Of a DNA stretch of 10,816 nucleotides, positions 45-10,084 are shown piece by piece. Position numbers and translations under genes: made by a program. The notes under the pieces are model-generated. The model was not told the origin of the DNA. It saw only the letters and a list, made by a program, of their open reading frames with translations, and made no database searches. Location of the stretch: UHGV virus genome UHGV-0110205. One strand, written 5' to 3'. This stretch comes from a virus. Position 1 is the first letter of the stretch. Every line of letters begins with the position of its first letter.

Positions 45-1205
45 TTACCTCGCATTTAAGTAAACTACGTTCTCCTCTTGTGCCGTATTTGTGCCATTGC
101 GACTTATAATCGCATCGATTTTGCTCGCGTGCTCGGTGAGATGCCCGGCTGAAAGGTGGGCGTATCTTTGAACCATTTCGAGAGTTTCCCATCCTCCCAT
201 CTCTTTAAGCGCAAGAAGAGAGACACCGGACTGAACCAGCCAGCTTGCCCAAGTATGCCTCAGGTCATGGAAGCGGAAGTTGCTAATGCCTGCCCGCTTT
301 AACGCTCCCTTCCATGCCTTGTTGCTGTCGGTTCTCATCTTCCTTACCGCTGCTGTTTTTGTTCCGTCGCTTCGGTAGGCAGGTTTGGTGTGGACAAACA
401 CCCATCTCTTATGGAGACCCTGCTGTTTTCTTAATATCTGGCATGCGGTTTCGTTAAGAGGAACTCCGATCGCATTGCCAGCTTTTGTTTCATCAGGGTG
501 CATCCATGCCATTTTCTTATCCAGATCGACCTGTGACCACTCAAGGTCTGTAACGTTGGAACGGCGAAGGCCTGTCGTGATTGCAAACATGACCACAGGG
601 AAGAAATGAGGAGCAATTTCTGCAAACAGGCGCTTCGACTCCTCCTCTGTAAGCCATCTGATTCGTCCATTCTTAACGCGTGGTGTTGATATTTTGGGCG
701 CCCTGTCAAGCCATCCCCATTCAACAGCCATATTGAGAATAGCGCGAAGTATTGCCAGATGCCGCGTCTTCGTTCCTTTGCTTGCCAGCTTTGGTTTATA
801 CTCCGGCACTGGCTTGCCAAGCCGCAAACACCTGTCCCGGCTCATTTCCCAGTTCAGGCGATGGCGGCGGTTTTCCATCCCGTCTACCGCCTCCATTATT
901 TTTTCTGTTGTTATGTCAGAGAGAATGGTTTCTCTGAAGTGCAACATCCAGAACGATATAATGCTCTTGTCATCATCAATGGACTTCTTATCCGATTTCT
1001 CACGCAGCCACCGTATGCAGGCTTCCTTGAATAGCTTTTTCGGCGATTCCCCGAGATTTTTTACTCTCCACGCTTCTGCTTTCAGACGATCGTGAAGTTC
1101 TTGCGCTTGCCTTTTGTCCGATGTTTCAAGAGAGCGTCTAACTCTTGATCCATCTGGCGCGACGAAATCGCAGTGCCACGTGCCACCGCGTAGTTTGATT
1201 GACAT
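45..1205 (-). CDS. int: Tyrosine-type phage integrase (P22-like Int family)
   Basis: 386-aa ORF; C-terminal catalytic region HDLRHTWASWLVQSGV...MVQRYAHL (R/H-x-x-R...Y); N-terminus and internal blocks resemble P22 Int from memory. AGGAGG lies 7 nt upstream of ATG 1205. Adjacent to tRNA 3' end. Confidence 0.95.
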   Translation of the reverse strand: MSIKLRGGTWHCDFVAPDGSRVRRSLETSDKRQAQELHDRLKAEAWRVKNLGESPKKLFKEACIRWLREKSDKKSIDDDKSIISFWMLHFRETILSDITTEKIMEAVDGMENRRHRLNWEMSRDRCLRLGKPVPEYKPKLASKGTKTRHLAILRAILNMAVEWGWLDRAPKISTPRVKNGRIRWLTEEESKRLFAEIAPHFFPVVMFAITTGLRRSNVTDLEWSQVDLDKKMAWMHPDETKAGNAIGVPLNETACQILRKQQGLHKRWVFVHTKPAYRSDGTKTAAVRKMRTDSNKAWKGALKRAGISNFRFHDLRHTWASWLVQSGVSLLALKEMGGWETLEMVQRYAHLSAGHLTEHASKIDAIISRNGTNTAQEENVVYLNAR

Positions 1206-1429
1206 GCTTTAACCTCCTGCACATCAACCGCATTCACCGCGCTATTGTGTCTTACAGACTTAAGCGCCGCAATGCAGTCTGACTTGCAAATGCGATATGG
1301 GCTTTTAGGTTTATCTGGATTTATCTTTGCGGCCTGAAGTCGTCCACTTCGTATCCACTGCGTGATAGTGCCTTTGTCTACCTTCAGATACGACGCCGCC
1401 TCTTCACGAGTGAAGATTTCTTCTTCCAC
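1082..1429 (-). CDS. xis: Excisionase / DNA-binding recombination directionality factor (HTH, AlpA/Xis-like)
   Basis: 115-aa ORF with GTG start preceded by GGAGA (6-nt spacing). N-terminal TREEAASYLKVDKGTITQWIRSGRL resembles excisionase-type HTH. 3' end overlaps int start by 124 nt. Position immediately upstream of int. Confidence 0.6.
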   Translation of the reverse strand: MEEEIFTREEAASYLKVDKGTITQWIRSGRLQAAKINPDKPKSPYRICKSDCIAALKSVRHNSAVNAVDVQEVKACQSNYAVARGTAISSRQMDQELDALLKHRTKGKRKNFTIV

Positions 1430-1519
1430 CTGGAATCTCCATTTATTGAATTGGTATTATTGCGGTAGGTCTGGATATCATTGAGCAATGAACAGGACTC
1501 ATCGAGTGTGAGGCTGTGG

Positions 1520-1864
1520 TTAGTCCTTGCGTAACTCGCTAATTCTTCTGTAAGTCTCTGGTGCTTTGTTTCCGTGTATCTTCATTTCAGACTTCAACAG
1601 AGCAACGAGTGAATCCCATTCGTTGAGGATGCCTTTGAATGCCGGAACGCGCTTTGCAACCTTGTTGAATGAATCCCTGATTTCTGGAATCTGCTCAACA
1701 AGTGCAACGCATCGTCGGAAATCGGCTGCATCATGTGGAGCGCCGAAGTGATGACCATAGATATTCTTTTTCAGTCCACATGCGATTGAGGCAAGAGTTG
1801 CGCTACTGATGCCGACATCGCCAGTCGATTGCCATTTCAAAACCTTCATAGCCAAATCTGACAT
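1520..1864 (-). CDS. Hypothetical protein, 114 aa (ea-region accessory gene)
   Basis: ORF MSDLAMKVLKWQ... with GGAGA 6 nt upstream of ATG 1864. Non-repetitive composition; same strand as operon. Lies 39 nt downstream of an intrinsic terminator. Confidence 0.55.
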   Translation of the reverse strand: MSDLAMKVLKWQSTGDVGISSATLASIACGLKKNIYGHHFGAPHDAADFRRCVALVEQIPEIRDSFNKVAKRVPAFKGILNEWDSLVALLKSEMKIHGNKAPETYRRISELRKD

Positions 1865-1902
1865 TTCTTGTCTCCATAAAACAAAACTCGCCGTAGCGAG
1901 TT

Positions 1903-1933
1903 CAGATAAAAGAAAACCCGCACTCGGCGGGTT
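1903..1933 (-). terminator. Rho-independent terminator (minus strand)
   Basis: 7-bp GC-rich stem aacccgc/gcgggtt (1915-1921, 1927-1933) with 5-nt loop. On the minus strand it is followed by uucuuuuaucu (revcomp of 1904-1914). Confidence 0.5.
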
Positions 1934-2212
1934 CGCATTCGTTCAAATTGCGTTTACTTCTTGGCGTTCTGTTCATCCATATCGATATACCATGGGTTGC
2001 TTCCCTTGGGCATGTTTAACGACTGCTCGCGATAGTATCTGATGCGCTCCATGAAATACTCGCGTGAGTGCTCAGGTTGCTCTCATGATACCTGCTCAGT
2101 GATAACAGGTATGTTAAGGCGCTCTCTGTACTCCATGCCTGATGCTGCAAGGTCAACGTTTACCTTGTTCTGTTTTTCTTTCGATTTCTCGGCGATGTTA
2201 TGCCTGACATTG

Positions 2213-2455
2213 TCAACCCGCCTCCTTCTGAACATAACGGTTATAAATCAGTCCCTGAGGGCCATAAGGAAGCGGGATGTGCAACTCCTCTGGTTCAGAA
2301 ACTATCCATTCTCCGGCCATCTCCGCTGGAGAGGTAATGATAAGTTGTTTGCTAATAAAAGGACCACTCCTCTCAACAACAAGCTTACCATCTTCATTAA
2401 TAAAAGCTTGGATGTCAGGTGTGCTTCCACACTTGGTGATGCAGCGTTTGAACAT
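2213..2455 (-). CDS. Hypothetical protein, 80 aa (moron-like cargo gene)
   Basis: ORF MFKRCITKCGSTPDIQAFINEDGKLVVERSG...; GGGAGA 6 nt upstream of ATG 2455. The ORF-track start at 2497 would lie upstream of the predicted -10, so I prefer 2455. Confidence 0.5.
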   Translation of the reverse strand: MFKRCITKCGSTPDIQAFINEDGKLVVERSGPFISKQLIITSPAEMAGEWIVSEPEELHIPLPYGPQGLIYNRYVQKEAG

Positions 2456-2485
2456 TTTGTGTCTCCCCATTTTATGGACGGGGTA

Positions 2486-2494
2486 ATTATAACA
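2486..2494 (-). promoter_or_regulatory. Candidate extended -10 promoter (TGTTATAAT) for the 80-aa gene
   Basis: Reverse complement of 2486-2494 is TGTTATAAT (TGn plus perfect TATAAT). Lies in a 126-bp AT-rich intergenic stretch, about 30 nt upstream of the SD/ATG of the 2455 gene. No good -35. Confidence 0.25.
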
Positions 2495-2581
2495 CATTGA
2501 AATATAGTAATATTTGACGTAGATTTCTTTTGATCTATAAGCGATTTTTTAATGCTTTTAAGTTATAAATACTTGTTTTCA

Positions 2582-3253
2582 TCACCCATCTTGCTGCGGT
2601 GCTACTATTGAAAAGTGCTCACACCCTTTAGCCCAAATAGTTTTGATAGTTGTCCAACTGACTGGAACCTTGATTTCGATTCTCCCGCTACAGTCACAAG
2701 TTTCGCAATCATCATCACCAAAGCATTCCGGGCAGCTTATAAACGTAGTTTCTGAAAATTCACCGGATAGCACACCCTTAGCGCCGTTCTCGGCTGTTAG
2801 TCTCTTCGGCACCATGACCCAACCATCCGGAATTACCGGAGAGTTGCCGGGTTCTTTAATGTGCAAGCGAGGCTCACCATCTTTTGGCTCAGGCCACTGG
2901 CGCTCCATGTTGATCTTCAATTTATCTTCCATAGCAGCGGTAATTTCAGCATCGCTGATGCCAGCACGGCGCTGTGAATCCCACAACAGAAACTGCATAT
3001 CAGCCCACTCGCTAAGATCGTCTGGTTCGGCTGCGGCTTCCAGTGCCTCTTTTGAGAGGTGTTTCAGTGGACCAATGGGGCCAACGCAGCCAAATGTGGA
3101 GTCAGACCATTTGGCATGCTCGTGGCGAATCTGTTCGCGTTCCAGTGATGCCAGTGCAATTCGTGCCAGTTCCATTTGTTCGCCACGAGTAAGCCCGTTT
3201 TCAAGCGGATTTTTAATGAATAATTCGATACGTTCTTTGGTAATAGTGGTCAT
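2582..3253 (-). CDS. DUF550 / MazG-like nucleotide pyrophosphohydrolase-domain protein (P22 EaA-like) with Cys-rich C-terminal region
   Basis: 223-aa ORF; AAGGTGA 7 nt upstream of ATG 3253. N-terminal block HEHAKWSDSTFG...GPLKHLSKEALE...DDLSEWAD resembles MazG/DUF550 motifs from memory. C-terminus has CPECFGDDDCETCDCSG. Confidence 0.7.
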   Translation of the reverse strand: MTTITKERIELFIKNPLENGLTRGEQMELARIALASLEREQIRHEHAKWSDSTFGCVGPIGPLKHLSKEALEAAAEPDDLSEWADMQFLLWDSQRRAGISDAEITAAMEDKLKINMERQWPEPKDGEPRLHIKEPGNSPVIPDGWVMVPKRLTAENGAKGVLSGEFSETTFISCPECFGDDDCETCDCSGRIEIKVPVSWTTIKTIWAKGCEHFSIVAPQQDG

Positions 3254-3255
3254 AG

Positions 3256-3447
3256 CTATTTCACCTTAATCTCAACATTTCGCAGCTTTAGCTCTACTGG
3301 CAGGTCTGACTTTCCTGTTAATGCTAATGCGAGATTTTCTGGGGTAATGAGAGCAGTTATTGCTTTCCCCATTGCCAGACGAATAATTATTCGTATTTCG
3401 CGATCGTCACATGCTCCTGGTCGAACGATTGATATTTGTCCGTCCAT
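3256..3447 (-). CDS. Hypothetical small protein, 63 aa
   Basis: AAGGAGA 5 nt upstream of ATG 3447; tightly packed between flanking genes (2-nt gaps), consistent with operon context. Confidence 0.5.
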   Translation of the reverse strand: MDGQISIVRPGACDDREIRIIIRLAMGKAITALITPENLALALTGKSDLPVELKLRNVEIKVK

Positions 3448-3448
3448 C

Positions 3449-4165
3449 TCACTCTCCTTTGATGCGAATGCCAGCGGAGCGGATTGCAGCGATGACTTCA
3501 GAAACTTTGTATGCCATTACCGTTTGGTAATCCTCGTGGAAATCTGTTCGATGAAGCATGCTGCTACGTTCCGGGAGCAGTATTTCCCGCGCTTCCAGTT
3601 CTGCAATGCGCTTCTCTGCGGCTTCCAGCTTCTCGCGCATATCGTCAACGTACTCGACCAGAGAACCGCCAGCAGGAATTTCGCACTCCTCGACCAGTTG
3701 GAAGTAGATATCAGCTGCGGCCCGTGTGTTGCTATGCCTAGCGTCGCCCATCTCACCTTCACGAAGAGCATCGCGTTCGGCGGTAAGATTGGCTATTTTG
3801 CTGTCTTTGCCTTCCAGCTCAACGCGCAGCCTCCCAACCGTAAGCGCAATATCCTCGTTCTCCTGGTCGCGGCGTTTGATGTATTGCTGGTTTCTTTCCC
3901 GTTCATCCAGCAGTGCCAGCACGGTAGCCGGATTGGCTGCAGCGATGAATTCAGCATTGGCCTGCTGTTCCATTTGGAAATCTTCATCGAAACCGCTTTC
4001 AGGATGCGCTCCTTCAATTCTGCAAATGGGAAGATATCCAACAACTTCACGATGAATTAGCGCATCACCAGCATCAAATCTCTCCTCTCCATATTCGAGC
4101 GACCACACACCACACGTTGCTTTCTCTGCCTTTTCACGCAGCGCCTGATAGTTAATTTTGGTCAT
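3449..4165 (-). CDS. Ead/Ea22-like protein
   Basis: 238-aa ORF; N-terminal NYQALREKAEKATCGVWSLEY...AEFIAAANPATVLALLDE matches my recollection of the Ead/Ea22 family signature; central coiled-coil-like acidic region. Upstream stop/start are adjacent. Confidence 0.75.
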   Translation of the reverse strand: MTKINYQALREKAEKATCGVWSLEYGEERFDAGDALIHREVVGYLPICRIEGAHPESGFDEDFQMEQQANAEFIAAANPATVLALLDERERNQQYIKRRDQENEDIALTVGRLRVELEGKDSKIANLTAERDALREGEMGDARHSNTRAAADIYFQLVEECEIPAGGSLVEYVDDMREKLEAAEKRIAELEAREILLPERSSMLHRTDFHEDYQTVMAYKVSEVIAAIRSAGIRIKGE

Positions 4166-4166
4166 A

Positions 4167-4466
4167 TCACATCACCCTGAAGCCGTTGCATTTACGTAAG
4201 AAATCGCAGATATAGCCCTTCATTTTTTCATGCCAATCTCGATCATTCCCATTGCACCAACCATCAGGTGGAGTCCAGTTTTCTATCAGAGCAGCCATTT
4301 TCTTTGCTTTCGCCGGAGTAGCTGTTGCGGTATCGCAGTAATGACGAGTGTCAACCAACGCATCCATACCATCGATATCAAGTACGCAAAACCATGTGTG
4401 ATTCGGCATTCCAACAGATGGTATTTGTTGCCCACGTCGACGTTTATCAATAAGACATACACTCAC
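4167..4466 (-). CDS. Hypothetical protein, 99 aa (GTG start)
   Basis: AAGGAGG 6 nt upstream of GTG at 4466; start overlaps stop of upstream ORF as GTGA (translational coupling). The ORF-track start at 4487 lacks an RBS. Confidence 0.55.
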
Positions 4467-4630
4467 TGCTTGCCTCCTTTGCGCCACATCGCATTCAGAT
4501 ATTTGTTTTGATTTACTGACGGAAAAGAATTTCTCTTAAGCAATTCCTCTCTCGATGGCATTGGCTTTACGCGTTGGCGAATAATCATTTCTGCCGGAAG
4601 AATGCCGGGATTGTATGCAAGTCCTCTCAT
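4463..4630 (-). CDS. Hypothetical small protein, 55 aa
   Basis: GAGGA 7 nt upstream of ATG 4630. The long ORF-track version (start 4780) overlaps the abc2-like gene out of frame, so the shorter form is preferred. Confidence 0.4.
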
Positions 4631-4640
4631 GGTAAATTCC

Positions 4641-4934
4641 TCAGTCATTACTGATAGCGCCATAGCGTGAGCGGTAATTACGCAGGCGCGGGTCAATTTC
4701 AGGGAAGTGGGTATATGTGGCTTTGCGGAATGGTCGGATTGATGTCTGGTAAATTCGATCGCGTTCTTCTTTCTCTGCAAGCCATATACAGTGGCGAAAT
4801 TCCTTTTCCTCTTTCGTTTCCTGCGGTAGCGACATTATTCGATCGTAGTTTTTTCTGAATTTATCCAGCACCTCCGATACGGAATTGCCGGAACAGCGGC
4901 GCGCGTCGTCCGCACCATACAGAGGCGCTGGCAT
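4641..4934 (-). CDS. abc2: Abc2-like anti-RecBCD protein (recalled similarity to P22 Abc2)
   Basis: 97-aa [29 protein letters not shown]...; AAGGA 7 nt upstream of ATG 4934. Located downstream of erf/ssb as in P22-type recombination modules. Family assignment is from memory. Confidence 0.6.
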
Positions 4935-4957
4935 AATGGAATCCTTATGTTGCTACT

Positions 4958-5341
4958 TTAGAAGGGAATTGAATCGTCGTATTCAGGATGATTTTGATGA
5001 TTGCTACTTTGCTGCTGTTGGCTGTTTCCTGAAGTTGCAAATCCAATCCTTGCATTCAGTAATTCAAGAGTGATTGATTGACCATTTTGCCCCTGATAAA
5101 CATCAACCCTGATGTTTTCTCCGGTAATTTCTACAATGCCACCTTCAACAAGAACACTACGGTAGTAATCCGCTTGCGCTCCCGGCTTGGCAAATACAAC
5201 GGCGCTGTAGTTTGTCCATTCTTTCTTTTTTGTCTGGCGATCGTAATACTGAACGCCAGCACGGATGTTGAATCCGATATTTTCCCCGGCCTGAAACTCT
5301 CTTGCGGGCTTGTTTAGTCTTACAGTAATCGAATGTGCCAT
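4958..5341 (-). CDS. ssb: Phage single-stranded DNA-binding protein
   Basis: 127 aa from ATG 5341; canonical SSB acidic C-terminal tail ...PEYDDSIPF preceded by Gln/Ser-rich linker. Start overlaps erf stop as TAATG. Confidence 0.75.
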   Translation of the reverse strand: MAHSITVRLNKPAREFQAGENIGFNIRAGVQYYDRQTKKKEWTNYSAVVFAKPGAQADYYRSVLVEGGIVEITGENIRVDVYQGQNGQSITLELLNARIGFATSGNSQQQQSSNHQNHPEYDDSIPF

Positions 5342-5946
5342 TAAGCAGCCGCTCCTTCTAATTCGTCTCGTCTGATGTTGTAAACGTCCTGCGCTTTGTG
5401 CTGCTCCGGTGTGCCTTCGAGCATCTTCCACGCTTTGGCGAACGCCTGTTTAAGCTCTTCCACGGTGTTTTTCTGCAATGCTGCGTCAGTGAATGCTTTT
5501 AGAACCTGTTCAGGTGTAGGTGATGGTTTTGATTGCTTTACTGCTGCGTTCTGCTGATGTTTATGCTCGTCTGTATCTGCATCTTTCGCATCATCAATGC
5601 CGAACAAACCATTAAGGCAATACTTGCGCGCATAAGAGCTTGTAGCTCCAGTAACTTGTGCAGAATCCATTCCTTTCTTGCTTTCTTCCTCTCGTGCAAG
5701 AGCGGTTGCCGTATGACTGTTTTCGCCATCGGTAATAGTTGCCGTGGCTTTCACGTAATACCGATCACCAATCAACACAACTTCATCGCTGATTGATAAA
5801 AACAGGCCATTCAGTAACGGCTTAACGCCTTCAAGAATGTCTTCGCAGCTTCTGTATTTATATTTGCCGAATGAGTTGTACTGATTCTTTGGCGCGTTCA
5901 GATTCTCCTGAATAGCTGCCAGTCTTGCGTAAAATTCTTTGCTCAT
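5341..5946 (-). CDS. erf: Erf-family single-strand annealing protein (P22 Erf-like)
   Basis: 201 aa from ATG 5946 (MSKEFYARLAAIQENLNAPKNQYNSFGKYKYRSCEDILEGVKPLL...), matching my recollection of P22 Erf. The ORF-track start is an upstream TTG. Confidence 0.9.
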   Translation of the reverse strand: MSKEFYARLAAIQENLNAPKNQYNSFGKYKYRSCEDILEGVKPLLNGLFLSISDEVVLIGDRYYVKATATITDGENSHTATALAREEESKKGMDSAQVTGATSSYARKYCLNGLFGIDDAKDADTDEHKHQQNAAVKQSKPSPTPEQVLKAFTDAALQKNTVEELKQAFAKAWKMLEGTPEQHKAQDVYNIRRDELEGAAA

Positions 5947-5956
5947 ATGATTGTTC

Positions 5957-6127
5957 TCAGAATGGACACGGCCCAAGGAAATAACGCTGATTTAATACTT
6001 CGACTCGTGACAAATTAAGGCATACCCGCATTCCTTCGCGGTCGCCATTATGGCGATACCAGAGAGCTTTCTGCGTGTACATGCGTCTCTGTAACTTGCT
6101 CTCCTTCACTGTGGTTGCAAGTGACAT
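5957..6127 (-). CDS. Small protein, 56 aa, at the position of P22 arf (accessory recombination function)
   Basis: AAGGAGA 5 nt upstream of ATG 6127; MSLATTVKESKLQRRMYTQKALWYRHNGDREGMRVCLNLSRVEVLNQRYFLGPCPF; ends 11 nt before erf. Not in ORF track (<60 aa). Function inferred from position only. Confidence 0.4.
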   Translation of the reverse strand: MSLATTVKESKLQRRMYTQKALWYRHNGDREGMRVCLNLSRVEVLNQRYFLGPCPF

Positions 6128-6202
6128 GAATATCTCCTTCGTTACCGATTAAATCTTTCATCTGACGAATGAATTCTTCGTCTGACCAGTTATCTGTAAA
6201 AC

Positions 6203-6355
6203 TCATTTCCTGCGATACCACGGAAGGTTGATAGCTGATTTCATCGCTTTATTTGCTTCAAACCACATTTTGGAATCACCAATAAATCTGGCTATTACTG
6301 CTTTGTTTTGTGCAGCACGAAGCATCTGGTGATTGATGGCTATTTCATTGCGCAT
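6203..6355 (-). CDS. kil: Kil-like host-killing/cell-division inhibitor small protein
   Basis: 50-aa ORF MRNEIAINHQMLRAAQNKAVIARFIGDSKMWFEANKAMKSAINLPWYRRK. Motif IARFIGDSKMWFEA resembles lambda Kil IATFIGDEKMFREA as recalled. GAGGT 6 nt upstream of ATG 6355 (alternative ATG at 6325). Overlaps cIII 3' end. Confidence 0.5.
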   Translation of the reverse strand: MRNEIAINHQMLRAAQNKAVIARFIGDSKMWFEANKAMKSAINLPWYRRK

Positions 6356-6471
6356 AATAAGACCTCAACTCTTTTCCATCCGTCACGTAATTTACGGGTG
6401 ATTCGTTCAAGTAAAGATTCATTTAGTTGGAAGGCACCCATGCGAGCGCCTCCCGCGATTGCGTAAATCAT
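6340..6471 (-). CDS. cIII: CIII-like FtsH (HflB) inhibitor
   Basis: 43-aa ORF MIYAIAGGARMGAFQLNESLLERITRKLRDGWKRVEVLLCAMK. Core ESLLERITRKLRDGWKR matches the lambda CIII amphipathic helix. AAGGA 7 nt upstream of ATG 6471. Confidence 0.7.
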   Translation of the reverse strand: MIYAIAGGARMGAFQLNESLLERITRKLRDGWKRVEVLLCAMK

Positions 6472-6495
6472 GGGTGGTTCCTTATGTTGGTTTTA

Positions 6496-7464
6496 TTAGT
6501 AGGTTATTTTTGTTGCGAATACTTCGCCTTTTACGATGGCTGTTATGATATTTTTAGCAACATCTTCTGATGCGCCAACCTTGATAAGGTCAGCAAGTAT
6601 TTTGTTATTTACTTCTTTCCGGTGAGCTTTATCCTTTGCTCTACGCTCTTCTTCTTCCTTGATTCTTTTTTCTTCTGCTATTCTGGCTTGCTCTTTTGCT
6701 TCAGCATCGCGACGGATTCGTTCAGCCTCCTCCTGTGCTTTTCTGCGTTCTGCTTCAATTGCTGCCTGCTTTTCTCTTTCAGCTCGTTCTGCTGCCTCTT
6801 TTGCTTCGCGCTGTGCTCGCTGCTCGGCTTCAATGCGTTCACGCTCTGCACGTTCCGCTGCGGCCTTAGCTTCTGCTTCTCGCCTTGCTGCTGCTTCAAT
6901 TTCGTCTTTTGCCTTTGCTTCGGCTTCTGCTCTGGCTTTCTCTTCAGCTTCTCTTTTTAAGCGTTCTTCATGCTCTCGCTTTTCCTGCTCCGCTTTGAGT
7001 CTTGCCTCTTCTCTTTGGCGGTCAAATTCGCGATCCATCAAAATAGCTATTTCATGGTCAGACTCAATTTGCTTTGCGAGAGCTTCAGCTGCTGCCTTAG
7101 CTTCTTCTTCGGCTTTAATCCGCGCCTGTTCTTCCTCATAATCAGTAAGAGGCTGGCGTGCCTTGGCTTTCAGCTCATCAAGGCGATCACGCACTGTCTT
7201 GCGGTTGGCATCAATTAGCTTTGGAATTTCCTTCAGTTCAGCCACAAGGTCTTTGCCAAGACCATCGAGATATGTTTTCGTCTGCGCAACTTTATACGCC
7301 AGAGAAGCGATCTCCTTTCTGCCCTTTGCCGTTGTGATATCAGGCACAAAGGACATAACTTCACGTTCAACCTTTTGAAGGATTTCTTCAATCTGGTCGG
7401 CAGACTGAAATACAGTCATTGCATTTGATTTTTCAATAACAACTAAATCTGTTACTTCACTCAT
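6496..7464 (-). CDS. 322-aa protein with long E/R/A/K-rich predicted alpha-helical (coiled-coil or single-helix) central domain; function unknown
   Basis: GGAGGA 3-4 nt upstream of ATG 7464. Globular N-terminus (~110 aa), ~170-aa low-complexity charged segment (EEARLKAEQEKREHEERLKREAEEKARAEAEAKAK...), short C-terminal domain. Coding strand fixed by operon context. Confidence 0.85.
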   Translation of the reverse strand: MSEVTDLVVIEKSNAMTVFQSADQIEEILQKVEREVMSFVPDITTAKGRKEIASLAYKVAQTKTYLDGLGKDLVAELKEIPKLIDANRKTVRDRLDELKAKARQPLTDYEEEQARIKAEEEAKAAAEALAKQIESDHEIAILMDREFDRQREEARLKAEQEKREHEERLKREAEEKARAEAEAKAKDEIEAAARREAEAKAAAERAERERIEAEQRAQREAKEAAERAEREKQAAIEAERRKAQEEAERIRRDAEAKEQARIAEEKRIKEEEERRAKDKAHRKEVNNKILADLIKVGASEDVAKNIITAIVKGEVFATKITY

Positions 7465-7639: not shown

Positions 7640-7891
7640 TCAGGCAGCCTTGTTGTAAATGTTGCAGGTATCAAGTAAGTAATTAGATGGAGCGCCATAA
7701 ATTATGAACTCATCGTTTGTCGGGTCCATCTCCATCTCTTGGCCTATTGCCATTCTTGCGTCAGTGTCATCAGCGGCGAAGCATAAAACAGCCCACGCCC
7801 ACATTGTTTTAAAAAGAACTGCAATTGGCTGTGGTTTTACTGAATTTGCGTTAGCGCGAAAATCACAAATCGCACTTTCATGAAATTCCAT
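7640..7891 (-). CDS. Hypothetical protein, 83 aa, immediately downstream of N (position of ral in lambda)
   Basis: GAGGTG 4 nt upstream of ATG 7891; begins 9 nt after N stop. C-terminus ...YNKAA faintly recalls lambda Ral (...NNKAA), but the rest does not obviously match. Confidence 0.55.
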   Translation of the reverse strand: MEFHESAICDFRANANSVKPQPIAVLFKTMWAWAVLCFAADDTDARMAIGQEMEMDPTNDEFIIYGAPSNYLLDTCNIYNKAA

Positions 7892-7899
7892 ATCTCACC

Positions 7900-8232
7900 T
7901 CAATCGTAATAAGCTGGAATTGATTTTCCGCGTTGCTTCTGGCGGCCTGAACAAGTCACACCAATTTCACTGCGTGGCTTGCTGTACCATGTGCGCTGAT
8001 TCTTGCGCTCAATACGTTGCAGGTTGCTTTCAATCTGTTCGTGGTATTTAGCCAGCACCGTAAGGTCTATCGGATTCAGTGCGCTTTCTACTCGTGATTT
8101 CGGTTTGCGATTCAGCGAGAGAATAGGGCGGTTAACTGGTTTTGCGCTTACCCCAACCAACAGGGGATTTGCTGCTTTCCATTGAGCCTGTTTCTCTGAG
8201 CGACGTTCGCGGCGGCGTGCTTGTGCATCCAT
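7900..8232 (-). CDS. N: Antitermination protein N (lambda N family)
   Basis: 110-aa ORF MDAQARRRERRSEKQAQWKAANPLLVGVSAKPVNRPILSLNRKPKSRVESALNPIDLTVLA... is near-identical to recalled lambda N, including the Arg-rich boxB-binding motif. GGAGA 5 nt upstream of ATG 8232. Confidence 0.95.
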   Translation of the reverse strand: MDAQARRRERRSEKQAQWKAANPLLVGVSAKPVNRPILSLNRKPKSRVESALNPIDLTVLAKYHEQIESNLQRIERKNQRTWYSKPRSEIGVTCSGRQKQRGKSIPAYYD

Positions 8233-8233
8233 T

Positions 8234-8365
8234 TTATTCTCCTTTGAGCAACTTCATCGCTTCATCAATACGTGATTGTGTCCCTGCGTTTGACTCCACT
8301 TCTTGAATTCGGCGTGCGTCCTCAAGGAGTTTCGCAATCATTTCTTTAAGCGCTTCGTTATTCAT
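8234..8365 (-). CDS. Candidate small ORF (43 aa) in the nutL-N leader
   Basis: AGGAGA 7 nt upstream of ATG 8365; MNNEALKEMIAKLLEDARRIQEVESNAGTQSRIDEAMKLLKGE (helical, charged). Stop is 2 nt before the N start and overlaps the N SD. Could instead be non-coding leader. Confidence 0.35.
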   Translation of the reverse strand: MNNEALKEMIAKLLEDARRIQEVESNAGTQSRIDEAMKLLKGE

Positions 8366-8475
8366 GGTCATTCTCCTGTCAGTTAGCTTTGAGTAACGCG
8401 CCGTGATGCTTATCTCCACGGTTGCTGTCTTGCAGCTGCATTTCGCGCTACTCAAAGCCTTCTGCTTTGAATGCT

Positions 8476-8506
8476 GCCCTTCTTCAGGGCTTAATTTTTA
8501 AGAGCC
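8476..8506 (-). promoter_or_regulatory. nutL (boxA + boxB) N-utilisation site
   Basis: Minus strand reads GGCTCTTAAAAATTAAGCCCTGAAGAAGGGC. boxB GCCCTGAAGAAGGGC is identical to lambda nutL boxB; boxA GGCTCTTA is one mismatch from CGCTCTTA. Confidence 0.7.
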
Positions 8507-8545
8507 TCACCTTCATGGTGGTCAGCGCGTCCTGCTGATGGCTAA

Positions 8546-8574
8546 ATAGTACGATTTGTACTTTATCGAGTCAA
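8546..8574 (-). promoter_or_regulatory. PL early-left promoter (-35 TTGACT, 17-bp spacer, -10 TACTAT)
   Basis: Reverse complement of 8569-8574 is TTGACT and of 8546-8551 is TACTAT. Faces nutL and N. Spacer contains the palindrome AGTACgatttGTACT. Confidence 0.5.
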
Positions 8575-8620
8575 TACAAAATGTTCTAAATATAACTACT
8601 TTTTTATAACGCTTTGTATT
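8548..8620. promoter_or_regulatory. Candidate OL operator sites (15-bp AGTAC-N5-GTACT type)
   Basis: Perfect palindrome AGTACgatttGTACT at 8548-8562. Degenerate copies AATACaaaatGTTCT (8573-8587) and ATAACgctttGTATT (8606-8620), spaced 25 and 33 bp. Same motif class recurs at OR. Confidence 0.35.
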
Positions 8621-8635
8621 TAATGGGTTTATATT

Positions 8636-8669
8636 TTGGAAAAAGAAAACCCGACGCTAAGGTCGGGTT
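8636..8669 (-). terminator. Rho-independent terminator downstream of the repressor gene
   Basis: 8-bp stem aacccgac/gtcgggtt (8648-8655, 8662-8669), 6-nt loop; minus-strand U-tract uuucuuuuucc (revcomp of 8636-8647). 30 nt after the cI stop. Confidence 0.55.
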
Positions 8670-8699
8670 ATTGTTGTGTGTTTTAGAGTTGTGAGGCTG

Positions 8700-9359
8700 T
8701 TAACTAAATGTCTCTTCAGGCCACTGGCTGGCGATAACTTTCCCTACTACGGAACAGCTATCATTGCATGGAATCATTGGATATTGCGGGTTTAGTGGTT
8801 GTAGAAACACCTGACCGCTATCCCTGATTAGTTTCTTGAAGGTAAACTCATCACCTCCAAGTCTGGCTATGCAGAAATCACCTGGCTCAACAGCCTGCTC
8901 AGGGTCAACCAGAATTAACATTCCGTCAGGAAAGCTTGGCTTGTAGCCTGTTGGTGCGGTCATGGAATTACCTTCAACCTCAAGCCAGAATGCAGAATCA
9001 CTGGCTTTTTTGGTTGTGCTTACCCATTTCTCCGCATCGCCTTTGGTAAAGGTTCTAAGCTCAGGCGAGAACATCCCGGCCTGAACATGAGAAAAAACAG
9101 GGTACTCATATTGTTTTTTAACGGGGGCAGATGAGTATTCGCCAACAGGTGAAAATGTACCGTCGTGGTTGAATGAGACGTTATCAATACCAAGGTATTT
9201 AAACACCACACCAATCTCGTCAAGAGATGGATGACGAGATCCGCGCAACCAGTGACCAATTCCACCCTGCGTCATACCAAGCTCTTCAGCTAACTTCTCT
9301 TGAGTTATGCCGAGCTCTTTCATTCTGGATCTAGCCAGTTCATACCATTTCATTTTCAT
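8700..9359 (-). CDS. cI: Prophage repressor, CI-like (N-terminal HTH plus C-terminal LexA-type S24 autopeptidase domain); not lambda immunity
   Basis: From ATG 9359 ([37 protein letters not shown]...): XRE-type HTH; C-terminal domain with Ala-Gly (HVQAGMF), Ser (EGNSMTAP) and Lys (FTFKKL). Start could be 9353 or 9401. Divergent from cro. Confidence 0.9.
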
Positions 9360-9368
9360 ACCCTTATT

Positions 9369-9442
9369 ATTACGCTCTGTACTAAAACCATCCATGCACA
9401 AGATGTATTTTTTGTTTGCATTCTAAAAGTACATATCGTATT
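9369..9442. promoter_or_regulatory. Candidate OR operator sites (same 15-bp motif class as OL)
   Basis: TTACgctctGTACT (9370-9383), TGCACaagatGTATT (9394-9408), AGTACatatcGTATT (9428-9442); spacings 25 and 34 bp. The last overlaps the PR spacer and -10. Confidence 0.35.
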
Positions 9443-9444
9443 AT
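9416..9444 (+). promoter_or_regulatory. PR early-right promoter (-35 TTGCAT, 17-bp spacer, -10 TATTAT)
   Basis: TTGCAT at 9416-9421 and TATTAT at 9439-9444; about 27 nt upstream of the cro ATG; SD GGAGGG at 9462-9467. Confidence 0.5.
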
Positions 9445-9470
9445 TGTTTCATGGTTACTATGGAGGGCAT

Positions 9471-9686
9471 ATGAGCAACCTACGAAAATATCGAGAGTCA
9501 CTGAATATCTCTCAAACAACACTTGCTAAGGCAGTTGGATGCACACAGGGAGCTATCGGACATTGGGAATCTGGTCGTCGCTTCCCAGACCTTAAAACAT
9601 GCCGTGCTCTTGTTGAGTGCCTAAACAAGTTAGGCGCAAAAGTCAGTCTTGATGACGTGTTCCCGCCGGAACACAAAGCCGCTTAA
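9471..9686 (+). CDS. cro: Cro-like HTH repressor
   Basis: 71 aa from ATG 9471 (MSNLRKYRESLNISQTTLAKAVGCTQGAIGHWESGRRFP...), XRE-type HTH. GGAGGG 4 nt upstream. The ORF-track N-terminal extension crosses the operator region and is rejected. Confidence 0.85.
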   Translation: MSNLRKYRESLNISQTTLAKAVGCTQGAIGHWESGRRFPDLKTCRALVECLNKLGAKVSLDDVFPPEHKAA

Positions 9687-9694
9687 GACATTCC

Positions 9695-9726
9695 CGCTCT
9701 TACACATCCCAGCCCTGAAAAAGGGC
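9695..9726 (+). promoter_or_regulatory. nutR (boxA CGCTCTTA + boxB GCCCTGAAAAAGGGC)
   Basis: Both elements match lambda nutR as recalled; located just after the cro stop. Confidence 0.75.
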
Positions 9727-9750
9727 ATCAAATTAAACCACACCTATGGT

Positions 9751-9770
9751 GTATGCATTTATTTGCATAC
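9751..9770 (+). promoter_or_regulatory. Lambda-like tR1 / cII leader region with 7-bp inverted repeat (gtatgca-N6-tgcatac)
   Basis: Sequence 9727-9805 appears identical to the lambda nutR-tR1-cII leader as recalled (ATCAAATTAAACCACACCTATGGTGTATGCATTTATTTGCATACATTCAATCAATTGTTATCTAAGGAAATACTTACAT). Confidence 0.35.
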
Positions 9771-9805
9771 ATTCAATCAATTGTTATCTAAGGAAATACT
9801 TACAT

Positions 9806-10084
9806 ATGCAACTTACAAGTACTCGCAAGAAAGCGAATGCAATTACAAGCAACATCCTGAATCGAATTGCTGTACGTGGTCAGCGAAAGGTTGCCGACGC
9901 GTTAGGGATTAATGAATCGCAAATTTCGCGATGGAAAGACAGCTTCATCCCCAAAATGGGAATGCTTCTGGCTGTTCTTGAATGGGGTGTTGAAGACGAG
10001 GAGTTGGCGGAACTGGCTAAGAAAGTAGCCAGAATGCTGACAAAAGAAAAAGCCCCGAAGAACGGCGAATTCTTCGAGGCCTAA
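9806..10084 (+). CDS. cII: CII-like transcriptional activator
   Basis: 92 aa from ATG 9806 with lambda-identical SD AAGGA; C-terminal ISRWKDSFIPKMGMLLAVLEWGVEDEELAELAKKVARMLT parallels lambda CII; N-terminus diverges. Confidence 0.85.
   Translation: MQLTSTRKKANAITSNILNRIAVRGQRKVADALGINESQISRWKDSFIPKMGMLLAVLEWGVEDEELAELAKKVARMLTKEKAPKNGEFFEA
9839..9852 (-). promoter_or_regulatory. TTGC-N6-TTGC direct repeat (candidate CII-binding site / PRE -35 region)
   Basis: Minus strand reads TTGCttgtaaTTGC, inside the 5' end of cII as in lambda PRE. Distance to the lambda-like -10 (AAGTAT near 9790-9800) is longer than in lambda. Confidence 0.25.

Follow-up and report, generated by a model that had tools for sequence, protein, structure and literature searches.

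A probable three-site left operator at the PL promoter of a lambdoid prophage with VT2-Sakai/Nil2-type immunity

A palindrome lying within a candidate phage promoter raises the question of whether it serves as an operator and, if so, to which immunity type that operator belongs. The virus genome UHGV-0110205, analyzed here as a single stretch of 10,816 nucleotides (hereafter, the window), presents such a case. A preliminary description made from the sequence alone reported a perfect 15-bp palindrome, AGTAC-N5-GTACT, in a promoter spacer, together with two degenerate copies, and read the locus as OL/PL of a phage whose N and nut are lambda-like and whose immunity specificity differs from that of lambda. 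Everything testable agrees with the OL/PL of a lambdoid immunity region, including the layout, the OR set, N/nut, the operator, and the DNA-binding domain. Positions 8546-8621 very probably constitute the left operator (OL1-OL3) overlapping PL of a lambdoid prophage with an immunity module of the VT2-Sakai (Sp5)/Nil2 type. The predicted operator set is already known, having been annotated since 2000 for the Shiga-toxin phage VT2-Sakai; the palindrome is therefore real but ordinary.

The palindrome, AGTACGATTTGTACT at 8548-8562, is perfect as described. Both weaker copies were also recovered: AATACAAAATGTTCT (8573-8587) carries two mismatches with its center 25 bp further on, and ATAACGCTTTGTATT (8606-8620) carries three with its center 33 bp beyond that of AATACAAAATGTTCT. 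The 17-mers around these sequences are designated OL1, OL2, and OL3 (Table 1). On the minus strand, 8574-8546 reads TTGACT cgataaAGTACAAATCG TACTAT, which a consensus scan identified as the sole promoter-like minus-strand site in 8380-9500, with 9/12 consensus matches. The palindrome had been placed exactly in the spacer of this promoter candidate. It does fill the 11 promoter-proximal bases of the 17-nt spacer, but it also runs 4 bases into the -10 hexamer, and given this overlap it is not purely a spacer element. Transcription from PL is predicted to start at about 8539, a position placed by homology to the lambda PL leader, for which we take the start to be 35582. With lambda operator coordinates drawn from NC_001416, OL1 (-8 to -24) and OL2 (-33 to -49) lie essentially where lambda has its own OL1 (-9 to -25) and OL2 (-33 to -49), in keeping with the classic operator position proposed earlier, whereas OL3 lies at -66 to -82 compared with -53 to -69 in lambda. 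Lambda OL1 likewise overlaps its promoter, much as OL1 does here.

Table 1. Features of the immunity region in the window
Feature	Coordinates	Strand	Description
N antiterminator	7900..8232	-	Pfam N36, 2.9e-24; first long gene of the PL operon
nutL boxB	8476..8490	-	GCCCTGAAGAAGGGC on the minus strand, within the lambda-like PL leader
PL promoter candidate	8546..8574	-	-35 TTGACT (8574-8569), 17-nt spacer, -10 TACTAT (8551-8546)
OL1	8547..8563	-	TAGTACGATTTGTACTT, 17-mer around the palindrome; overlaps PL -10 hexamer and proximal spacer
OL2	8572..8588	-	CAATACAAAATGTTCTA; center 25 bp from OL1; 3-bp overlap with PL -35 hexamer
OL3	8605..8621	-	TATAACGCTTTGTATTT; center 33 bp from OL2
Bidirectional stem-loop terminator	8648..8669	.	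Directly past the cI stop codon; lambda tIMM-like
cI repressor, 219 aa	8700..9359	-	Pfam HTH_3 and Peptidase_S24
OR3	9368..9384	+	TATTACGCTCTGTACTA; between the probable PRM -35 (9389-9394) and -10 (9366-9371)
OR2	9394..9410	+	ATGCACAAGATGTATTT; weakest match, score 10.7; abuts the probable PRM -35
PR promoter	9415-9444	+	TTTGCA, 18 nt, TATTAT
OR1	9427..9443	+	AAGTACATATCGTATTA; spacer and -10 of PR; score 19.2
cro, 71 aa	9471..9686	+	Pfam HTH_3; recognition helix TQGAIGHW, almost the same as that of cI
cII homologue	9746-10084	+	

Three further sites matching the OL set lie between the divergent cI and cro genes (9368-9443). OL1-3 (8547-8621) and OR3-1 (9368-9443) flank cI (8700-9359) as a tripartite operator on each side, and a CI-type repressor with an HTH domain and an S24 self-cleaving-type domain adjoins the operators, with cro divergent, as in a lambda switch. 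The promoter-proximal operators overlap the -10 and spacer regions of both promoters; OL1 has 4 bp in common with TACTAT, and the end of OR1 falls within TATTAT. OR2, whose distances from OR3 and OR1 are 26 and 33 bp, makes no contact with the PR -35, and its counterpart in phage Dewey, ATGTACAAGATGTATTT, scores 13.1 against an operator matrix described below. A site placed like OL2, 25 bp from OR1 (~9402-9418, over the PR -35), was considered as well, but nothing motif-like is present there and the matrix puts OR2 at 9394-9410. Within the set, OL3 departs from the palindrome at three positions and OR2 is a weak match. PRM is likely formed by TGGATG (9394-9389) and AATAAT (9371-9366), which are placed like the PRM annotated in AP000422, a record that also annotates an OR3 equivalent. 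Given this PRM, OR2 and OR3 would be centered at about -43 and -17, respectively, relative to a transcript whose start coincides with the cI ATG at 9359 or lies close to it. At the other end of that transcript, the tIMM-like terminator (88.9% identity between window 8642-8677 and lambda 35799-35834) probably ends PRM/cI transcription ahead of OL.

Comparison with lambda indicates that the window is a natural hybrid. The earlier statement that N and nut are lambda-like holds; N and the nutL leader show 96.7% and 97.7% nucleotide identity to lambda, respectively. The PL leader with nutL extends over 8453-8540, where the similarity stops; nutR is 99% identical (9693-9808), and the boxB sequences are GCCCTGAAGAAGGGC and GCCCTGAAAAAGGGC. 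Within cI, the C-terminal S24 domain equals that of lambda at 132/135 residues and is 95% identical in DNA (8706-9110), whereas the N-terminal HTH domain is only ~26% identical and carries a non-lambda recognition helix, TQGGIGHW. CI and Cro have a common helix, TQG(G/A)IGHW, and are 35% identical over 62 residues. Lambda homology thus ends at 8540 and 9110, and the segments unlike lambda are 8541-8641, containing the three OL sites, and 9111-9692, containing the cI N-terminal domain, OR, and cro. These two segments are the ones that set immunity specificity. An Erf-type recombinase is also encoded by the prophage, and no stx gene is seen within the window.

Could the palindrome be a chance feature of an AT-rich promoter, and its degenerate copies a product of loose pattern matching? 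The window contains no excess of perfect 5-N5-5 palindromes (14 found versus 11.7 +/- 3.5 expected from shuffles), so the palindrome alone is not evidence, and a three-mismatch copy of a 10-base pattern is likewise weak evidence by itself. However, the stricter pattern WGTAC-N5-GTAYT, for which a search had been proposed, matches only OL1 (8548) and OR1 (9428) in the window, with 0.01 matches expected. A 17-column matrix was then built from the six VT2-Sakai operators in Table S5 of PMC4587872; because its source is a set of orthologous sites, it tests conservation and positioning and is not an independent discovery. This matrix ranks 8547, 9427, 8572, 9368, and 8605 first to fifth in the window and 9394 seventh, and gives scores of 20.5 (the best in the window), 17.4, and 14.2 to OL1, OL2, and OL3. 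Seven matches score at least 10, compared with 0.67 expected from dinucleotide-preserving shuffles, and six of the seven form 3+3 clusters at OL and OR; three such matches within 80 bp occurred in 0/1000 whole-window shuffles. A comparable frequency in random AT-rich sequence had been named as grounds for abandoning the operator reading, but shuffling the two AT-rich intergenic segments yields 0.03 matches each versus the 3 observed. Additionally, an unbiased repeat search returned as its best inverted repeat OL1 (8545-8564) paired with OR1 (9426-9445), 20 nt in length and 90% complementary. The sites remain fixed while the intervening DNA diverges, and VT2-Sakai, 2G7b, E212, phi330, and phage L all show these sites at this spacing. 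A chance origin is, in our assessment, barely credible.

Several other candidates were examined and set aside. One matrix match outside the six operators (7861-7877) falls within a gene showing 98% identity to its VT2-Sakai counterpart and was probably just carried along with that gene. The window lacks AAATACAATTGGTTATG, which occurs 114-116 bp past OL3 in VT2-Sakai and its relatives and also in lambda itself, and the spacer of ATACCAAGGTATT (9187-9199, within cI) is of the wrong length. An Rfam scan of the whole window at gathering thresholds gave no match.

The assignment to the VT2-Sakai/Nil2 type draws on both the regulators and the operators. CI and Cro are 96% and 99% identical to their VT2-Sakai counterparts, and a repressor identity of at least 92% has been used to predict the same specificity (PMC2629481, Table 1). 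The preliminary description had recommended a comparison with known lambdoid operator sets, and in this comparison all six sites are orthologous to the VT2-Sakai set and agree with it in order and sequence. GenBank records AP000422 and AP005153 annotate three "putative operator" 17-mers by PL and three by PR/PRM, which are the orthologues of the six sites in the window. The window 17-mers differ from their VT2-Sakai orthologues at 1-3 bases, almost all of them outside the invariant arm positions; OL1 differs from TAGTACGATATGTACTT by one central base, and the annotated orthologues of OL2 and OL3 are CAATACAATTTGTTCTA and TACAACGCTTTGTATTT. Table S5 of PMC4587872 credits Fattah et al. 2000 and describes the operators as "same as operator sequences in E. 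coli O157:H7 Sakai"; in that table, the OL and OR labels are swapped relative to the gene map. The cI-OR-cro DNA is 93% identical to that of VT2-Sakai, the Stx1-converting phage AP005153, Stx2 II, Nil2, 2851, and PA4-type Stx2a phages, and 98% identical to that of the non-Stx phages Dewey, Louie, vB_EcoP-720R6, and vB_EcoP-683R2. Of 5426 complete E. coli genomes, 768 (~14%) contain at least 80% of this region.

Other immunity types fit poorly. The OR1-3 sequences of BAA2326 (PMC5977221) differ from these sites, and 933W has a different CI and only two left operators (PMC3064807); the identity between the Sp5 and 933W CI proteins is 19.1% according to a 2024 bioRxiv preprint. Phage L/ST64T immunity was also rejected, since the repressor is 46% identical to phage L c2, far from ~92%, despite the shared helix and operator motif. 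No operator detail was found in PMC8951638, which treats CI clades, or in PMC10458857.

Conservation among relatives provides a further view of which bases matter. Six distinct OL versions of this immunity type were compared (window, Dewey, E212, 2G7b, phi330, and VT2-Sakai), with overall identity ranging from 97% down to 78%. Variable columns number 5/51 in the operators versus 29/44 in the DNA between and beyond them (Fisher p = 9e-9, an optimistic value because the sequences are related by descent), a contrast that is nonetheless obvious on inspection. Only 2/36 contacted-arm columns vary, and the OL2 arms are kept in all six versions. The spacings OL1-25-OL2-33-OL3 and OR3-26-OR2-32/33-OR1 occur in all E. 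coli members, and those of phage L are 25/30 at OL and 26/34 at OR. Klebsiella phage phiKp_30 has kept OL and OR and lost most of cI, of which only the first codons are left; its substitutions fall on the otherwise invariant A5 (OR3) and C6 (OR2) and on both OL2 arms. This single, anecdotal case may be seen as a natural experiment favoring operator function.

The same comparison bears on whether OL3 belongs to the set. OL1 and OL2 might be the true operators, with OL3 (8605-8621) conserved for another function, such as a UP-like/A-tract element or the end of the cI transcript. Its three mismatches to the palindrome and its location 33 bp from OL2, outside the promoter and preceded by a conserved T-run, could be explained in this way, and 933W-type phages manage with only two OL sites (PMC3064807). 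Nevertheless, 16/17 OL3 columns are invariant across the six diverged OL versions, whereas its flanks are variable, and it keeps the invariant A2, A5, and C6 as well as G12-T13. Furthermore, OL3 (TATAACGCTTTGTATTT) closely resembles OR3 (TATTACGCTCTGTACTA), the expected number of matches per window at its matrix score of 14-15 is 0.05, and in phage L a third site occupies a similar location. We therefore retain OL3 as an operator and consider a separate function unlikely.

Whether the sites might still be read by lambda-type repressors, such that the prophage shares lambda immunity, deserves more careful weighing. The operator contacts of lambda CI include Q33 and Q44, of which Q44 reads A2. 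Both residues align with Q in the window repressor, and the TAGTAC half-site has T1, A2, A5, and C6 in common with lambda TATCAC; the retained Q44 would fit the shared T1-A2...A5-C6, with positions 3 and 4 altered. In addition, PMC10742460 reports Fattah et al. 2000 as having seen some cross-immunity between VT2-Sakai and lambda, and lambda CI binding was measured on all six VT2-Sakai operators (PMC10742460). However, that report of cross-immunity is second-hand, and the measured affinities, 3.7-6.4 µM compared with 0.2-0.35 µM for lambda OL1/OR1, are nearly flat across sites and look weak or non-specific. These lambda CI measurements are the only binding data that the literature yielded; no binding study with the cognate CI or Cro on these sites was found. 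None of the window sites matches the lambda operators of NC_001416, as the preliminary description had maintained, and imm-lambda would need both TATCACCGCCAGTGGTA-type operators and a lambda-type N-terminal domain, neither of which is present. In place of lambda S45 and N55 the window repressor has G and R; it lacks the N-terminal arm, and its N-terminal identity to lambda is low, as noted above. PMC2629481 takes an N-terminal-domain identity of ~50% as ground for predicting a different operator specificity of epsilon34 versus L, VT2-Sa, and Nil2. An immunity specificity different from that of lambda is thus well founded on sequence, and functional lambda immunity appears very unlikely.

The sequence, layout, enrichment, conservation, and orthology to annotated operators described above point to a switch whose protein binding, cooperativity, and promoter activity we infer as follows. 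CI dimers would bind each site through their HTH N-terminal domains, with one recognition helix per A-N-T-A-C arm. The half-site consensus of the twelve arms is A-(G/A/T)-T-A-C, and A2, A5, and C6 are nearly invariant in the matrix. The arm centers are 10 bp apart, a distance consistent with an HTH dimer in successive major grooves on one DNA face. The central N5 is mostly A/T-rich and variable between sites, and is therefore probably read indirectly. OL1 occupancy would cover the -10 and spacer and OL2 occupancy the -35, thereby excluding RNA polymerase, and such exclusion at PL would silence N and the leftward genes in the lysogen. The same CI bound at OR1-OR3 would block PR, with OR2 probably activating PRM and OR3 probably shutting it off. 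Cro, with its near-identical helix, is expected to occupy all six of these sites in lytic growth; the common helix would suit both proteins reading the same sites, by analogy with phage 434. The lambda-type C-terminal domain would supply dimerization, pairwise cooperativity, possibly OL-OR looping, and RecA-stimulated self-cleavage for induction. Because the Ala-Gly cleavage site and the Ser and Lys motifs are retained, RecA-dependent induction and lambda-like oligomerization are expected.

The spacing of the sites complicates this picture. With gaps of 33 bp compared with 20-24 bp in lambda, pairwise cooperativity of the lambda style cannot simply be assumed. A C-terminal domain ~98% identical to that of lambda, combined with 25/33 and 33/26 spacing and an OR2 clear of the PR -35, may indicate that the switch uses another cooperative geometry, such as OR1-OR2 pairing over three helical turns. 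Moreover, as the dimerization and oligomerization domain is common to lambda-type repressors, mixed dimers or OL-OR loops with lambda-type repressors could form in double lysogens. We offer these ideas tentatively and think it doubtful that they will hold. If they did, such dimers or loops would link "heteroimmune" prophages through cross-talk and could account for the cross-immunity that PMC10742460 attributes to Fattah et al.

Conceptually, the window offers nothing new, being a further copy of a predicted operator set. The immunity module is nevertheless common in E. coli and governs the induction of Sakai-type Stx2a and some Stx1 prophages, so these operators bear on Shiga-toxin output. 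The main use of the window lies in its being a clean natural "lambda imm-VT2-Sakai" hybrid, which delimits the exchanged specificity cassette to the OL sites at 8541-8640 and the cI N-terminal domain-OR-cro segment at 9111-9692.

Among known systems, VT2-Sakai is the closest, with the same layout of PL, PR, and PRM. The OL spacing is 25/33 in both, and the OR spacing is 26/33 here versus 26/32 in VT2-Sakai. The VT2-Sakai OL region is only 78% identical overall to the window, and the differences fall almost entirely between the sites. In the window, cI is followed by the terminator and OL, ~0.9 kb from OR, whereas VT2-Sakai has two extra ORFs between and a distance of ~2.3 kb. N and nut are of the lambda type here, whereas the VT2-Sakai record describes an N similar to those of 933W and H-19B.

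Lambda, too, has two divergent promoters, each with three two-fold symmetric 17-bp sites. In both phages, the cI start is probably leaderless at PRM, the Ala-Gly cleavage site is kept, and near identity extends to tIMM, the PL leader, nutL, N, and nutR. However, the operator is TAGTAC-N5-GTACTT here and TATCAC-N5-GTGATA in lambda, and the sites are spaced 25/33 and 33/26 bp here versus 24/20 and 24/23 in lambda. Unlike in lambda, OR2 is clear of the PR -35 and rexAB is missing. Cro here belongs to HTH_3 and is related to the N-terminal domain of its own repressor, unlike lambda Cro (Cro/CI family, NC_001416), which was not found among the PDB sequence matches of the window Cro.

More distant relatives extend the motif. 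Salmonella phage L (= ST64T immunity) uses the same half-site family, A(A/G)TAC-N5-GTA(C/T)T, with AATACAAAATGTACT twice at OL and AGTACGAAATGTATT at OR1, and the annotated operators of coliphage HK620 have the variant form AATAC-N5-GTATT. Their recognition helices, TQGAIGHW in phage L and TQGAVGHY in HK620, are related to that of the window repressor. Overall repressor identity is 46% for phage L and 35% for HK620, with C-terminal domains that are not lambda-like; the phage L Cro is 70% identical to the window Cro, whereas the HK620 Cro belongs to a different family. The operator consensus proposed for epsilon34 is WTACRAWWTGTAT, and the nearest counterparts of its repressor N-terminal domain are in L, VT2-Sa, and Nil2, at ~50% identity (PMC2629481). 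The related motifs in phage L, HK620, and epsilon34 indicate a recognized group of related specificities.

Phage 434 (ACAA-N6-TTGT) provides a working analogy, not a close sequence relationship; its half-site sequence and site length differ from those here, and it was not found among the PDB sequence matches of the window proteins. The likeness lies in the arrangement: repressor and Cro are both HTH_3 proteins with a common recognition helix, as in the window, where short contacted arms similarly flank a mostly A/T-rich center that is probably not contacted.

The cI gene is a natural chimera. In its product, 132 of the 135 residues from 84 to 218 are identical to those of lambda CI (95% at the DNA level), residues 1-83 share only about 26% identity with the lambda protein, and the recombination joint near 9110/9111 falls inside the inter-domain linker. 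Downstream of cI (8640-8700), neither rexA/rexB nor other lysogenic-conversion genes are present. Because a bidirectional terminator comes immediately after the cI stop and the left operators (OL) come next, with no such genes in between, OL and the right operators (OR) lie only about 0.9 kb apart, compared with about 2.3 kb in both lambda and VT2-Sakai.

The leader of N is otherwise lambda-like; however, it contains a 126-bp insertion between nutL and N that lambda lacks. A 43-aa ORF, MNNEALKEMIAKLLEDARRIQEVESNAGTQSRIDEAMKLLKGE, is carried by this insertion and preceded by a good ribosome-binding site, and its stop directly adjoins the start of N. The ORF matches PHROG 32391 (1.2e-32), which is annotated as function unknown. 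The left arm of the prophage (45-7464) is mosaic and, in addition to the genes tabulated, contains several ORFs of unknown function, some of which are common to HK620 and VT2-Sakai. In none of the complete E. coli genomes does coverage of the window at a single location exceed 73%.

Coordinates of the features discussed, as positions in the window
Feature	Position	Strand	Remark
Integrase	45-1205		left arm
SSB	4958-5431		left arm
Erf-type annealing protein	5341-5976		left arm
PHROG 2471 gene	7640-7891		contains 7861-7877
43-aa ORF	within 8234-8369	-
Insertion	8244-8369	-
Terminator	8648-8669		lambda tIMM-like
cI	8700-9359	-

An additional match to the VT2-Sakai operator matrix, AATCACAAATCGCACTT at 7861-7877 (score 11), also occurs in VT2-Sakai, phi330 and the Stx1 phage. 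As the gene containing it is 98% identical in those phages, the match has probably travelled with that gene rather than being an operator.

In phage Dewey (PQ850600), the CDS annotated as 'hypothetical protein' at 2983-3099 (+) spans nutL and the PL/OL1 region. Most likely this stretch is regulatory DNA that was wrongly called as a gene. In Table S5 of PMC4587872, the OL and OR labels appear to be swapped, because the site positions in AP000422 (VT2-Sakai; two clusters, 2621-2695 and 4850-4924) contradict the names: 'OR1-3' map between N and cI and are thus OL, and 'OL1-3' map between cI and cro.

Phage phiKp_30 (LC768498), isolated on Klebsiella, displays OL1 and OL2, only the first codons of cI, OR and cro in that order at 1600-1900, with substitutions at otherwise invariant operator positions. 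The phage thus resembles a lytic, possibly vir-like member of the VT2-Sakai immunity type that arose by deletion of cI.

Operator spacing lacks mirror symmetry, as the PL-nearest pair in OL (8547-8621) is separated by 25 bp and the PR-nearest pair in OR (9368-9443) by 33 bp, and this 25/33 and 26/32-33 pattern is kept in every relative examined. Although the CI C-terminal domain is of the lambda type, the spacing is unlike that of lambda.
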